Assembly (NCBI GenBank): GCA_951406725.2
Contig: OX597818.1
Location: forward strand, 135,718,001 to 135,782,000
Direction: 5' to 3'
From: Octopus vulgaris
Lineage: Eukaryota
DNA length: 64,000 nt
Part shown: in pieces, positions 461 to 52,532 of the stretch
Position numbering within the stretch: position 1 is the first letter of the stretch
Layout: the number at the start of each line of letters is the position of its first letter
The notes under the pieces: model-generated
Database searches by the model: none
Told to the model about the DNA's origin: nothing
What the model saw: only the letters and a program-made list of their open reading frames with translations
Program-made: the position numbers and the translations under genes

Positions 461-755
461 TAATCTGTGTATTGTAGAAGTATGACCAATTTATTACACA
501 TAAATTTTAACAACAAGCGAGATATATTCTCCGTGACAAAACGCGGTGAGTAGCTTGTTCCCCAGTTGGAACGTGCCTCGGGAATATTTGGACTGATAAT
601 AACATAGCAATTTTATTTATCACTGCTTAGCACTCCGTAATTTACTTACGGTGAGCCGCTGTTATAGCGCTACCAGCTCACCATATATGGTGACTGGAGA
701 AGCATAAAAGAGAGGCAATTTCTTTGATTGGTTCGTAGCGTCGTCTGCCTGGTGT

Positions 756-800
756 CTGTAGCCGTCGAGGAAATAATTCCGAAATGCTAGCATCTCACAG
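756..800 (+). ncRNA. Type I hammerhead ribozyme candidate (variant core CCGUCGA)
   Basis: Reads ctgtag CCGTCGA GGAA-ataa-TTCC GAA ATGCTAGCAT C^ tcacag. Stem II is perfect and stem III is palindromic. Core positions U4 and A6 deviate from consensus. Confidence 0.55.
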
Positions 801-949
801 TCTGGGTAAGTGACGCTGCGAACTGATCTAGGTGTAAACACACCATTTGTCAACAAGTGAGATATACAGTGATCCTCGCTACTTCGCGGTTCAACTATCG
901 CGGATTTAATATATATATATATATATATATATATATATATATATATATT

Positions 950-1130
950 CATGGAAGGTATTTATATTTAAGAAACACACAAAAGCCGTGTTTAATTTGT
1001 TGACAAATTAAACTTAAATGTTGGAGTAAGAACCTTTTGTGCGTTTCTTAAATGGCTTATAAACACCTTCCACGCTGCAAAGCACACGATCTCAGATCAA
1101 ATTACTTGCTATGCGAGTACATCTCCGTAA
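950..1130 (+). mobile_element. PLE-type pLTR fragment with inverted 5' duplication, inserted in (TA)n
   Basis: 1001-1130 is homologous to 52383-52530. 951-1000 is a deleted inverted copy of 1003-1072. (TA)n lies on both sides. Confidence 0.6.
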
Positions 1131-1273
1131 TATATATATATATATATATATATATATATATATATATATATATTGATAAAACGGTAAGATAACAAAAGAA
1201 AGAAAGAGACCTCAATATTATGTAAATAGAGGAAATTTATCTATACAATATATGTTACATTACTCGGTAGTCA

Positions 1274-1336
1274 AGATAAAACTCTGAGTTTCAGATGCCG
1301 AAGTGGAAATCCACAACACCATCTCTTCGGTTATCT
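1274..1336 (-). ncRNA. Type I hammerhead ribozyme candidate in PLE pLTR (U4C variant)
   Basis: Minus strand reads agataa CCGAAGA gatg...catc t GAA ACTCAGAGT T^ ttatct. Stem I is 6 bp and stem III is near-palindromic. It lies just 3' of the GIY-YIG ORF. Confidence 0.6.
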
Positions 1337-1531
1337 GGCTATTTGAAAACGTTATGAAAAAATACCGTTAAAAATGAAGGGAAATTACTCTGTTATAACT
1401 CTGCTTTGCCTGCGTACTTATACATCGCTCGCATTTTTCGTCATAAAAATTATATAAAAATACATAAAAAATATATAAAAATATATAAAAATATATAAAA
1501 TCTTCTTGGGACATAACACAGAAAGCATGTT

Positions 1532-2184
1532 CTATCCGTTTTCTTTAGGGGACCAAAAACGTAACAGAAATTTAGTCACATGTGGGCATGATCCGAAAAG
1601 TTCTGTCCTTGTATTTAGACATGTGGTAGGGTCTAAGCTGCTTTTCCAGATAAGCCATCTCTCCATGTCGCATAAACCGCACCTTCCGCTGCCGTTAGTA
1701 TAGGGCTTACATCTGGCCAAAATCTTCCATTGTATGTTATAATCGACACCTTTATCTCTTAAAGACCAAATATGATTGGATAATTGTGTCGCTTTTCTTT
1801 TGTTCCAGTGCCTAAAGCTCAAAGTGTGGTTATTGAACCTGGCCTTGAAATTACCCTCTGTCAGGCCCACGTATTTCTTCGTCAAAACGGTGTCTTTAGT
1901 GGTTATAGAGTTTACGGTAGCCTCATATATGATGGTCTTGGACATGCAAGCTCCATTTAGCGGGCACAATTCTTTATTCCTGCATGAACAGCTGTTTTCT
2001 TCTTGTGTTTTTTGTATGTTATGATTGATTATGTTTTTAAAATTGGTAGTTGAACTAAAACTAATTTTTAAATTGTGTCTATTGAAGAGTTTCCTATAAG
2101 CATGGTTAACTGGAAAATGTCTATCTATCAGTGCTAGGAAATATTTACCTATATTGAAGGCCACCTCGGGTGAGTAAGGGGGCG
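1532..2184 (-). CDS. PLE polyprotein C-terminus: Cys-rich linker and GIY-YIG endonuclease (no true start, 5'-truncated)
   Basis: PPYSPEVAFNIGK...CSCRNKELCPLNGAC...IIYEATV...KYVGLTEGNFKARFNNH...CGLCDMERWLI...LN shows the GIY/YIG, Arg, His, Glu and Asn motifs of PLE endonucleases. Confidence 0.85.
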
Positions 2185-49013: not shown

Positions 49014-49668
49014 CTCTTTAGCATTTAAACCAGTCATATGTGGCCCAAGTATTCTAACTCTTTTATGTTCAATCCAGCCTGATCTGTCCTCTCATACCTG
49101 TGCTACAATGTCACTGAGAAAATAAACAATCACACCATTGAAATCTTGAAGCTATAAAATTATGCTTCTTTGATGAGGCTAGGGTCATCCCAGGCTAGTG
49201 GCCCCAGATACTTCATCATGTGTAGAGCTAACCAGTCCACCAGTGTTCTCCATCACTGGTGGTCCCATGCCAGCCCCTCTGCATTATTAATTCAAAACTA
49301 TGTGAATAATTGTATATATATATATATATATATATATATATATATATATATATATATATATATATATATATATATATATATATATATATATATATATGTG
49401 TGTGTGTGTTTGTGTGTCTGTGTTTGTCCCCCTAGCATTGCTTGACAACTGATGCTGGTGTGTTTATGTCCCCATTACTTAGCGGTTTGGCAAAAGAGAC
49501 TGATAGAATAAGTACTGGGCTTACAAAAGAATAAGTCCCAGGGTCGATTTGTTCGACTAAAGGTAGTGCTCCAGCATGGCCGCAGTCAAATGACTGAAAC
49601 AAGTAAAAGAGTAAAAGAGTAAAGAGTAAGAGTAATACATTTGGCAGAATGATCTGAATGCTAAAGGG
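49014..49668. mobile_element. TTAA MITE family 1 interrupted by (TA)n and a SINE A tail (about 49400-49633)
   Basis: Both termini retain TTAA. Confidence 0.75.
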
Positions 49669-50075
49669 TTAACCAGGAATTAGCTGACAGCAAAAATATA
49701 ATTATTATGAATGTATAGATTTACTGCTATTCTTTTATGTTCATTGTTGGAAATTCATCAAAACTGTAGAACCAACTAATAGCAGGGAATCCACTTCCCC
49801 CTTCTTCAGCAGCATTCACAGCCTGGCTATTAAAATTTTTGAGTTATACCCAAACTGAAGCCAGATAATGAATTGATGAATGTCAGGACATTGGGATTGG
49901 TGCAGATAGAAGAGATCTGGCCTAATTGATTGATAGTATGGTTACTTTACTGGTCTTGGTTTAAATCTTCTCCAGATAAACTTTATACTTCAAAGGTACA
50001 GGTATGCCTGTATAGTGAATGAGTTTACTTAAGGATTAAGTGGTTTGCGTTTCAATCCCGTTGTATGGATGGTAT

Positions 50076-50342
50076 TGGTTTGTGCCCTCTACAATAGCTA
50101 CAGGTTAGTCAATACTTTGTGAGTGAAATTTGGTATATAGAAACTGGAAGAATCCCTTTGTGTGTGTGTGTGTGTGTGTGTGTGTGTGTGTGTGTGTCTG
50201 TGTGTGTTTGTGTGTGTGTGTGTGTGGTTTGTGCTCTCTACAATAGCTACAGGTTAGTCAATACTTTGTGAGTGAAATTTGATATATAGAAACTGGAAGA
50301 ATCCCTTTGTGTGTGTGTGTGTGTGTGTTTGTGTGTGTGTGT
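50076..50342. repeat. Tandem duplication of a SINE segment plus (GT)n
   Basis: tggtttgtgc.ctctacaatagctac...gaatcccttt(gt)n occurs twice. Confidence 0.85.
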
Positions 50343-51199
50343 ATTCTACTTCTTTTGATATGTTCATGCTGACTGTAAGCAAAGAGTCACTATCCACCAT
50401 TTATACAGCCTTACAGCATATCCAACCAAGGAACATAACTCCTAACCTAATCCACTGGCCTTTTTCCGTTTCACCACCTCTTTCACAGCAGCTACAAACT
50501 GCATGTGTTAATCCATCTCCGACAATAAAGAGCAGTCACTATATTCCTTGTTTGTTTGCAATCCTCCATGAAAATATGTCTGAGCTGTTTGCTGTTTACG
50601 GACAAGGGGAAATATATTACCTTGTTTGGAAATAGATGAGGGTTGGTAACAGCGACAGCATCCAGTATATCTAGTGGCAGAAAATTTTACCTCAGTGAAA
50701 TCTCATCTGTTTCATGCAGCTATGGAAAGATAGAAGTTAGAATGATGACCATCATTGCCATCTTTTAATGGCCCTTTTGCATGCTGGCTTAACTATGTGC
50801 ATGTGTAAGTGTGTGCATTTTACTGTAAATGAGTGTCACTGTCATGCAAGCAGTGTTCTTTACTTCCATTCTTCCATAAAAACATGGCTGGCCATGGGGA
50901 ATATTTAACCTTACTTGGAAACAGGTGAGGGTTGGCAACAGAAAGGGCATATAACCACAGAAAAATCCACCCCAACAAACTCCATCCAAACCTTCTGAGC
51001 ATGGAAAAGTGTACACTAAAATAATGATGATGATGATCACACACACACTCACACACACGCACGCACACACACACACACACACACACACACACACACACAC
51101 ACACACACACATACATACACACATAAATACATACATACACACACACACATACATACATACATACATAGGTTCATACATACATACATACATACATACATA

Positions 51200-52085
51200 T
51201 GCAAATGACCTCAGGGCATTGAACCTTTCAGGTGAGATGACAGAATATCGAGATGCCTGTCGTCTTGCTGTACTCAAGAAGACCTATACTCTGCAGCAGA
51301 AGTGTTAAGACCCGTCCCCCTGGTGGTGAGGATTGACCAGTTCCACATAAAAAGCACTTATGGTGGTGCCATGTAAAAGTGTCCATGTGGTTCCAAGTAA
51401 AAGTACCTGTGTGCCGTTATGTAAAAGCACTCATGCATGCCATGTAAAAGCACCCAGCACACTCTGTAAAGTGGTTGGCATTAGGAAAGGCATTCAGCCA
51501 TGGAAGCTATGCCAAATCAAACTGAAGTCTGGTACAGCTTGCCAGCTCTGGTCAAACTGTCCAACCCATGCCAGCATGAACAATGGATATTAAATGATGC
51601 TGATGGTGATGATGATACATACATACATACATACATATATATATATATATATATATATATATATATATATGCGAAGACATGTTGGGACAAGTAAAATCGA
51701 AATTGAAATTGAACCAATCCTATGACTGGCACCCGGCAGATACCAGGACCCCTGGACTGGTGGTACGTAAAAAGCACTATCCGAATCGTGGCTGATGCCA
51801 GCGCCGCCTCGACTGGCTTCCATGCCGGTGGCACGTAAAATGCACCAATCCGACCGTGGCCGTTGCCAGCCTCACCTGGCACCAGTGCGGGTGGTAGGTA
51901 AAAAGCACCCACTACACTCACGGAGTGGTTGGCATTAGGAAGGGCATCCAGCTGTAGAAACATTGCCAGATAAGACTGGAGCCTGGTGCAGCCTTCTGGC
52001 TTCCCAGATCCCCGGTCGAACCGTCCAACCCATGCTAGCATGGAGAACGGACGTTAAACAATGATGATGATGATGATGATGATGA
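51200..52085 (+). mobile_element. Two successive RTE 3'-end copies (51200-51616 and 51695-52085)
   Basis: Each has the conserved UTR and a (GAT)n tail. Confidence 0.8.
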
Positions 52086-52299
52086 TATATATATATATAT
52101 ATATATATATATATATAACAACTTCCTCAACTTCACATATCACATTATTGATAGAGCCTCTTCCTACTCACTTGGAGCTCATAATTACCATTCCTGCCTC
52201 CCTGAGGAACTGCACATACATCACCAATCTGCAGTATCGATTAATTGGATAACTGATCTATCTTATTGCTTCTACCGGAGGTACATCCTGTAAATCTAC

Positions 52300-52532
52300 T
52301 AACCATTCGCTGCTGATAACCTGAAATGGCAGCAAAGTTTTCTCAGTGAACAGGTCACAGTCTCAAAGCAACGAAAATATTTTGACAAATTAAATTTAAA
52401 TGTTGAAGTGAATCTAACAGTTTTTGTGTGTTTCTTAAATGGCTTATAAACACCTTCCACGCTGCAACTGTTTTCGTTCCAGCACACGACCTCAGATCAA
52501 GTCACTCGCTATGCAAGTACATCTCCGTAATA
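52300..52532 (+). mobile_element. PLE pLTR-like element, same family as 950-1130
   Basis: Shares tgacaaatt...aaacaccttccacgctgcaa...tacatctccgtaata. Confidence 0.7.
52339..52389 (+). ncRNA. Hammerhead ribozyme candidate with G3:C8 covariation (partly decayed)
   Basis: Reads tttctca GTGAACA g gtcac-agtctcaaa-gcaac GAA AATATT T^ tgacaaa. Confidence 0.55.

Follow-up and report, generated by a model that had tools for sequence, protein, structure and literature searches.

Worn hammerhead elements in a 64-kb stretch of the Octopus vulgaris genome: Penelope-like ends and likely retrozymes

The present analysis concerns six hammerhead-like motifs in a stretch of 64,000 nucleotides (nt) of Octopus vulgaris DNA (assembly GCA_951406725.2, contig OX597818.1, positions 135,718,001 to 135,782,000; hereafter the window, in whose coordinates all positions are given), which is repeat-rich animal DNA with short interspersed element (SINE) tails, (TA)n tracts and transposon fragments. 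The motifs are designated E1 (756, plus strand), E2 (1274, minus), E3 (13876, minus), E4 (32073, minus), E5 (44788, plus) and E6 (52339, plus). With a probability of about 0.55, the data are explained by worn hammerhead elements of two known kinds, namely the ends of Penelope-like elements (E2 and likely E5) and likely retrozymes with units of 340-357 nt (E1 and E3). The catch is real and mostly of known kinds, its Penelope-end part being ordinary; what is new is a high-copy, retrozyme-like family whose core has U in its third position (U3), together with a candidate family with G3 and C8 and a candidate shared start hairpin, the last two in few copies.

A first-pass annotation of the sequence had placed six type I hammerhead folds of six different sequence families here, and the five palindromic stem IIIs and five cores that it named were all found at their places. 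The six regions share no similarity above background, save for a match between E2 and E5 that is AT-rich and of low complexity, and the kinship that its alignment score of 66 might suggest was dismissed. All six motifs could be located, but they differ in kind and quality, Rfam matching one of the six and a plain descriptor scan three; likewise, five palindromic stem IIIs are present, but under a decay reading the sixth motif has a degenerate palindrome too. The Rfam match is E3 (13860-13930, minus strand, Hammerhead_HH9, 32.3 bits, E 3.3e-4 for the whole window), below the gathering score of 52 for that model, and E1 gave no hammerhead match even in a local Rfam scan. The plain descriptor recovers 44792 (E5), 13912 (E3) and 762 (E1). 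Its strictest class gave one match in the window versus none in 30 of 30 shuffles; at most one core change with a palindromic stem III gave two matches versus a shuffle mean of 0.27 (2 of 30 shuffles reached two), and two core changes gave four versus a mean of 2.67 (8 of 30 reached four), the strict classes alone exceeding the shuffles. A cost scan, which allowed any pair at positions 3 and 8 and forgave CpG-type transitions, ranked E5, E2, E3, E6 and E4 first to fifth and E1 seventh of 221; at a cost of 2.5 or less it gave five matches against a shuffle mean of 1.32, a count reached in none of 60 shuffles, a significance that is optimistic in that the cost model was drawn up after inspection of E4 and E6. 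When no change was forgiven, 44792, 1330 and 13912 alone rose above background, with E6 (52346) fifth of 155 at background cost, E1 (762) ninth and E4 (32109) absent. Predicted stem III self-duplexes amount to -13.6 (E1), -7.4 (E2), -4.8 (E3), -10.2 (E5) and -0.2 (E6) kcal/mol. Three motifs are thus solid (E5, E2 and E3), E1 is backed by its surroundings, E6 is plausible and E4 is weak. A further possible motif at 44327 (minus strand) was left uncounted, having neither a stem I nor a GAAA at a fitting place.

The motif at 13876 lies in a repeated unit and is annotated as follows.

13706..14080, minus strand: E3 unit, 357 nt of non-coding sequence plus an exact 18-nt terminal repeat (from period, fold and public contigs)
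13860..13930, minus strand: canonical type I hammerhead of E3 (from Rfam HH9 alignment and descriptor scan)

The E3 core (U3-U4-G5-A6-C7-G8-A9) occupies 13912-13906, stem III is a 6-nt palindrome, and the cut is predicted after 13882. E3 aligns over the whole HH9 model, loops 1 and 2 included, with a deviation at position 3, and the unit is predicted to fold into a long rod with the hammerhead at its tip (z of -4.3 as a linear and -4.7 as a circular molecule versus shuffles). Its GC content is 0.44, no open reading frame (ORF) of at least 100 amino acids overlaps the hammerhead, and no Penelope protein match was found. As in retrozymes, the unit falls within 150-450 bp, is non-coding with GC below 50%, lacks long terminal repeats and carries a type I hammerhead with canonical helices and loop nucleotides. 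The insertion site is a SINE tail, and since related SINEs have 28-36 other letters at this place, target DNA was probably lost or replaced upon insertion. Of the insert, 199 nt precede the predicted cut and 176 nt follow it, which makes a permuted 1.05 units.

Public contigs of 4 of the 24 listed sequencing runs (X1 and X2, presumably DNA; X10 and X18, presumably RNA) were aligned to 13600-14300, a region that covers E3 only. One X2 contig steps back 357 places at the 18-nt repeat, pieces of other copies carry this repeat at both ends, and summed depth stays steady across the junction, which argues that the repeat is part of E3 and that the family is arranged head-to-tail; the ends of the window copy would then not be the family's ends. 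The arrangement was seen as the junction, with no contig showing two complete hammerheads. On the same contigs, in which the 18-nt repeat is an integral part of E3, its interpretation as a target duplication was rejected. Summed contig depth over the unit was 286-3187 times that of the unique flank in X1 and 1146-11343 times in X2, and as contig overlap inflates this ratio up to 31-fold, it is a measure of repetitiveness and gives no copy number; after division by 31, the lowest bins still stand at 9 (X1) and 37 (X2), so that E3 is, by its contigs, a high-copy family. In X10 and X18, contigs cover 16 of 16 E3 bins and none covers the unique flank, and depth relative to the SINE tail is 0.04-0.06% versus 1.6-2.9% in the DNA runs. 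Contigs cannot show level, strand or ends, and this coverage was given no weight on the question of expression. For E3, the contigs of the four runs yielded no listed site at which molecule starts or ends accumulate, and a scan of metagenome and viral contigs with the E3 pattern gave no match. An X2 contig joins 13859 to 13708, linking a point near the 3' end of the window copy to a restart that lies 22 nt past the predicted cut, a joint that may mark a preferred 3' end in the family.

The core of E3 departs from the consensus C3-G8, having U3 with G8 or A8, and E3 would therefore be a variant rather than a plain member of the non-LTR retrozymes. Position 13912 (U3) is not among the 40 listed of 68 contig difference rows, each of which reaches about 35% or more in at least one run, so that C3 probably lies below about 35% in all four runs and U3 appears to be the majority state of the family. 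At 13907, G8 is replaced by A8 in 32%, 16%, 61% and 65% of depth, the last two figures being three contigs and one contig. Record 23 of X18, with 24 other letters, has A8, and a C3 would have surfaced in the listed rows if present, which argues for U3-A8 in that contig. From the contigs, U3 appears to be opposed by G8 in the majority of copies and by A8 in one subfamily, although A8 may in part be decay, since G8 sits in a CpG. One X10 contig (depth 11.2) has, by our reading of the table, a different, longer and self-complementary stem III with a GUC triplet, a change of the kind that would preserve the dimer helix, seen in this single contig. Both core pairs have precedents among published Penelope hammerheads, for which the sources were available in part: in the supplement of Cervera and de la Pena (2014), 2 of 44 rows have U3-A8, one has U3 with G8 (from Saccoglossus) and none has G3-C8 (PMC4209133), U3-A8 has been reported for Schistosoma Penelope hammerheads and others (PMC4209133, PMC3088659), and none of the 34 rows in the hammerhead table of Craig deviates at positions 3 and 8 (PMC8557442). 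The E3 hammerhead may be a slow yet usable ribozyme. The unusual diversity of cores emphasised by the first-pass annotation would then be partly decay and partly real change at the 3/8 pair: U3 is seemingly family-wide in E3, but CCGAAGA is best ascribed to decay and CCGUCGA probably so.

The second likely retrozyme, E1, is an array split by a later insertion, and its features are these.

511..866, plus strand: E1, a 340-nt non-coding unit (511-850) plus a 16-nt terminal repeat (from repeat comparison and a fold z of -4.7)
756..800, plus strand: decayed type I hammerhead of E1 (from the descriptor scan and an arm z of -4.8; no Rfam match)
2668..2791, plus strand: E1b, continuation of the array and copy of 527-644 (82% identical over 126 columns)
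506..516 and 2788..2798, plus strand: 11-bp exact repeat to the left and right of the E1 array, overlapping both element ends
865..2667, no strand assigned: insertion interrupting the E1 array, with TA flanks and short inverted repeats at its termini (from comparison of its ends)

The terminal repeat (511-526 and 851-866) is alike at 15 of 16 positions. The core (762-768) has U4 and A6 changed, stem III is a 10-nt palindrome (784-793) with C17 at 794, and in the predicted fold the hammerhead caps a long rod (about 726-828); like E3, the unit folds far better than shuffles, GC being 44-45% in the two. The annotation of the element at 756 is corrected here in that it continues at 2668-2791, where E1b, parted from E1 by the nested insertion, ends in a 12-nt motif shared with other repeats of the window. 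The array is head-to-tail and 1.4 units long, starting 284 nt before the predicted cut and ending 190 unit positions after it. Its flanking 11-bp repeat, whose score is equalled in 0.7% of 2000 random window stretches, is a probable target-site duplication. As the unit copies differ by 18%, the insertion must be old, and at such an age two core changes are plausible as decay. E1 thus combines a 340-nt unit, a 1.4-mer and an 11-bp duplication with two core changes, no Rfam match and a single locus. The insertion at 865-2667 is presumably of the miniature inverted-repeat transposable element (MITE) type. The locus as a whole is a four-level nest, the E1 array holding the TA-flanked inverted-repeat element, and this in turn an E6-family piece and a Penelope-like copy in (TA)n.

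The motifs at 1274 and 44788 are associated with Penelope-like remains.

1174..2184, minus strand: Penelope-like copy with a GIY-YIG fragment (from a weak GIY-YIG match, E 0.018, protein matches and motifs)
1274..1336, minus strand: E2 hammerhead (from the cost scan and comparison with published motifs)
44708..45221, plus strand: E5, an AT-rich insert between (TA)n tracts (from descriptor and cost scans and published rows)

E2 is, as had been claimed, the single motif adjoining coding sequence, and a tblastn search with three Penelope-type proteins found no second fragment in the window. The ORF (1532-2182) shares 46% and 39% identity with two unnamed proteins of greater length; a Pfam scan of these two gave no reverse transcriptase or GIY-YIG match, and they were assigned by motifs. 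The ORF itself has a CxCX5C linker, no cysteines within the GIY-YIG core (no CCHH), and CxxC and CxH motifs. These are the marks of the Hydra clade, which has the same linker, a GIY-YIG without CCHH, CxxC and CxH, (TA)n targets and hammerheads (PMC8557442, as far as available). The copy is 5'-truncated, without reverse transcriptase, and lies between (TA)n at 1131-1172 and 2185-2196; its protein motifs and its (TA)n insertion with a hammerhead behind the ORF are those of that clade. The E2 core (1330-1324; CCGAAGA, with U4 changed) stands 202 nt behind the ORF stop, its stem III and cleavage triplet are identical to those of Penelope-3_HM, and its layout is that of Hydra-1_oBim. Since the core is one letter from CUGAAGA, with which the hammerhead of this Octopus Hydra element is listed in the accessible rows (PMC8557442), decay is the best explanation of the C at position 4. 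The same explanation was rejected for the unpaired U that precedes GAAA in E2, as such a U is frequent in Hydra-clade rows. E5 has an intact hammerhead (44788-44868) with a CUGANGA core at 44792-44798, a 9-nt palindrome at 44855-44863 and A17 at 44864, together with (TA)n flanks and no coding part attached, and is likely a truncated Hydra-type end. E2 and likely E5 are thus best read as ordinary Hydra-clade Penelope-like ends, not as independent elements. A search of metagenome contigs for the GIY-YIG fragment gave no confirmed locus among 217 candidate stretches, and six short window motifs gave three matches in the available part of the supplement of Craig et al. (PMC8557442), all inside unrelated coding sequence. 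Next to E5, between TA tracts, 44195-44670 is CpG-rich (observed/expected 1.0 versus 0.42 for the window) and may be a further decayed end; the CUGAUG-like stretch at 44327 (minus strand) lies within it. The 12-nt motif with TA also stands on both sides of the Penelope-like copy (1121-1172 and 2197-2229), which may be a target duplication.

The two remaining motifs are decayed candidates.

32073..32115, minus strand: E4, a weak hammerhead candidate (from the cost scan, with CpG forgiveness only)
52340..52534, plus strand: E6, a candidate minimal hammerhead with G3 and C8 (from the cost scan and the motif end)
952..1134, plus strand: second E6-family copy, 5'-truncated (994-1134 is 80% identical to 52376-52534)

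E4 needs G5 and five further transition-type changes to be forgiven, in a region with a CpG observed/expected ratio of 0.13. E6 has its core at 52346-52352, five of six pairs in stem I, a 6-nt palindrome and an extra base after A9; its stem II has two mismatches, each with an A following a C (CpA sites), and as it stands E6 does not fold (z of +1.9 versus shuffles). Neither E4 nor E6 has an intact core with three helices, and only decayed copies would fit; an early view of both as flatly non-hammerhead was softened after the cost scan and its sham controls, and they are probably further decayed ends of such elements. The second E6-family copy has an inverted piece (952-1001) and lacks core and stem II, inverted 5' pieces and partial tandems being typical of Penelope-like insertions. 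If E6 is a hammerhead, it would be a G3-C8 core swap, which is, to our knowledge, known solely as an engineered rescue. In the accessible part of a study of a Penelope hammerhead, this swap partly rescues the C3G and G8C mutants (PMC11167929). No natural G3-C8 was found in the mostly open-access literature on hammerhead core variants, the E6 pattern gave no match in viral contigs, and its two matches in bacterial genome bins were both chance, without stems.

E1 and E6 are linked by the shared end motif, CTCCGTAATWTA, which occurs six times in the window versus 0.01 expected for a pattern that was picked after the matches had been seen (633-655, 1123-1134, 2185-2250 twice, 2780-2791 and 52523-52534). 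It ends both E6-family copies and the E1 array, and stands at the matching place in the first E1 unit as well; a further feature consists of little else.

2185..2250, no strand assigned: palindromic stub of the motif, a (TA)n loop and the reverse of the motif (hairpin arms as at 633-655 in E1)

In E1 the motif forms the 5' arm and loop of a predicted hairpin (z only -1.4) with a 3' arm similar to the stub's, and the array stops within the hairpin loop. About three independent events account for the six matches, and the E1 and E6 families otherwise share no sequence. In a lizard Penelope-like element studied in vitro, reverse transcription starts inside a stem-loop and AT-rich DNA is cut (PMC11167929, in part), and for this reason the hairpin, found in few copies, is proposed as a shared start signal of reverse transcription.

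Taken together, the data allow a model of how such elements may have spread. It is possible that a tandem copy is transcribed and that, as in published retrozymes, two hammerheads pair with each other through the palindromic stem III and cleave the RNA into unit-length pieces, each of which would be ligated to a circle. A Penelope-type reverse transcriptase/GIY-YIG protein could then nick AT-rich DNA, begin reverse transcription in an internal stem-loop and pass around the circular template more than once. The resulting insert would exceed one unit and end away from the cleavage site, as do the inserts of 1.05 units (E3) and 1.4 units (E1) in the window. The first-pass annotation had proposed several non-autonomous ribozyme retroelements mobilised by Penelope-like proteins; E3 and E1 lend this support, as both units are non-coding, about 350 nt long, permuted and present as more than one unit, E3 being highly repeated besides, which is the retrozyme pattern. 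However, E2 and likely E5 as ordinary Hydra-clade ends, and E4 and E6 as single decayed candidates, do not add independent elements. Mobilisation of retrozymes by Penelope-like enzymes is a published model. Several points weigh against the reading as worn Penelope-like ends and likely retrozymes. Family data exist for E3 alone, E1, E4, E5 and E6 having one or two copies each; the U3 claim hangs on a row missing from a table of which 40 of 68 rows are listed; U3 and G8 do not form a Watson-Crick pair, and stem I of E3 has a C.A mismatch, seemingly in the family majority. The shared motif is absent from the end of the window's Hydra-type copy, so that this copy does not point to the mobilising enzyme. 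Eight of nine predicted Xenopus retrozyme dimers remained uncleaved in vitro. Lastly, the lizard element could do without hammerhead cleavage, its chief template being uncleaved RNA (PMC11167929), so that permuted inserts are no proof of circles.

The same observations feed an alternative, judged unlikely, in which E3 and E1 are Penelope passengers with inert or dispensable hammerheads, read-through tandem RNA serves as template, U3.G8 is a decaying core and the G8A change is in part CpG decay. Cleavage was dispensable in the lizard element, where C3G and G8C abolish activity (PMC11167929, in part), predicted retrozymes seldom cleave in vitro, and position 8 of E3 falls within a CpG; yet the remainder of the E3 core is kept, as are its palindromic stem III and its two tertiary loops, the diverged X18 contig pairs U3 properly with A8, and U3-A8 and U3 with G8 both occur in the published Penelope consensus rows at hand. 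That all six motifs are plain pseudo-long terminal repeat (pLTR) fragments of autonomous Penelope-like families, with no independent amplification, is quite improbable. Such an origin fits E2 directly, and the (TA)n surroundings of E5 and E6, with the inverted 5' piece at 952-1001, make it fit these two as well; partial tandems are usual for Penelope-like elements, and Xenopus retrozymes are close to pLTRs; however, E3 (357 nt) and E1 (340 nt) close on themselves with no coding remnant, the E3 hammerhead is canonical rather than minimal, and among the loose ends listed none points to a common coding neighbour. More room, though short of even odds, must be given to E4 and E6, perhaps also E1, being chance look-alikes in AT-rich repeats, with E6 DNA-transposon-like and its G3-C8 a coincidence. 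Neither E4 nor E6 folds or matches Rfam, both are at background cost without CpG forgiveness, a sham context too lowers the cost of E6 from 3.0 to 2.3, and the palindrome is not kept in the second E6-family copy, though this copy is cut and rearranged just there. Set against this, CpG forgiveness brings costs to 1.6 for E6 and 2.4 for E4 versus 2.3 and 3.5 with the sham, the four helical and core elements are all present and correctly spaced in E6, with an extra base after A9 as in minimal hammerheads, and the end motif of its family is common to E1. A bolder extension, slightly less probable than that of inert hammerheads, would see an undescribed octopus hammerhead community with three pairs at position 3/8, namely C-G, a transition from U.G to U-A within one high-copy retrozyme family and a natural G-C swap in a second family, and with a 3' hairpin, common to two otherwise unrelated families, through which non-coding passengers would recruit a Penelope-type reverse transcriptase.

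Other repeats of the window include a near-perfect long inverted repeat at 4973-5184 (arms of about 90 bp, MITE-like), the source of a spurious microRNA score; a mariner-type transposase remnant at 23419-24523 (Transposase_1, E 4e-25) with inverted 58-bp tandem repeats at its ends; and a dispersed family with internal 61-66-bp tandem repeats (7740-7916, 35534-35748, 58455-58607 and 61459-61659). A reading frame at 28831-29397 resembles the C-terminal part of a long interspersed element (LINE) reverse transcriptase, without Pfam support, and we take it to be of the RTE type.

Returning to the worn Penelope-like ends and likely retrozymes, mobilisation of animal retrozymes is at present a model without a demonstrated signal or enzyme, and a terminal hairpin of unrelated families, a Hydra-clade element in the same genome and an in vitro Penelope system together make the question testable. 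Having both U.G and U-A at its core pair, the high-copy family further allows one to ask whether cleavage is selected at all. As standard hammerhead searches with a fixed C3-G8 would overlook these families, the numbers given for animal genomes may be underestimates. Penelope-like elements make up 6.83% of O. vulgaris in an account whose text and supplement do not mention ribozymes, and among the records listed from the mostly open-access literature on retrozymes, hammerheads and circular RNA in octopus and other cephalopods no description of the families was found, although Repbase or Dfam may have them catalogued as unnamed repeats.

Retrozymes have been described in mussel, with a family of 350-390 bp, and in other animals, and a Penelope origin has been proposed for them (Cervera and de la Pena 2020, PMC7229834; Li, Clavereau and Pollet 2026, 10.64898/2026.07.22.740005). 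E1 and E3 resemble these non-LTR animal retrozymes in their non-coding units of 340-357 nt, GC below 50%, type I hammerhead (a decayed one in E1), head-to-tail arrangement and strong self-pairing, E1 also in its target duplication, which is long when present, and Penelope-like elements co-occur. In contrast, E3 has U3 for C3, the window copies have one hammerhead each, and octopus is not among the species treated in these accounts, as far as available. For E2, the closest counterpart is the Hydra clade, including Hydra-1_Obim of Octopus bimaculoides, with which it shares a GIY-YIG without CCHH, the motifs, (TA)n, a hammerhead behind the ORF and a 9-nt palindromic stem III, the last also shared by E5 in design (PMC8557442, accessible part); however, by the hammerhead and protein rows at hand the window copy belongs to another family than Hydra-1_Obim, is 5'-truncated and has U4 changed. 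The minimal hammerheads of Penelope pLTRs, as far as their sources were available, likewise have a palindromic stem III and the extra base after A9 seen in E2, E5 and E6 (PMC4209133, PMC3088659), whereas the U3 of E3 stands in a canonical hammerhead that has tertiary loops, both partners occurring at position 8, and G3 with C8, as in E6, is found in 0 of 44 and 0 of 34 published rows (PMC4209133, PMC8557442). Finally, the Poseidon element of Anolis carolinensis shows an internal stem-loop start, an AT-rich target and more-than-unit products (Frangieh et al. 2024, PMC11167929), and may thereby offer a mechanism for the fixed 3' ends in E1 and the E6 family, although it is an autonomous element of the Penelope/Poseidon clade whose start loop lies within the ORF.

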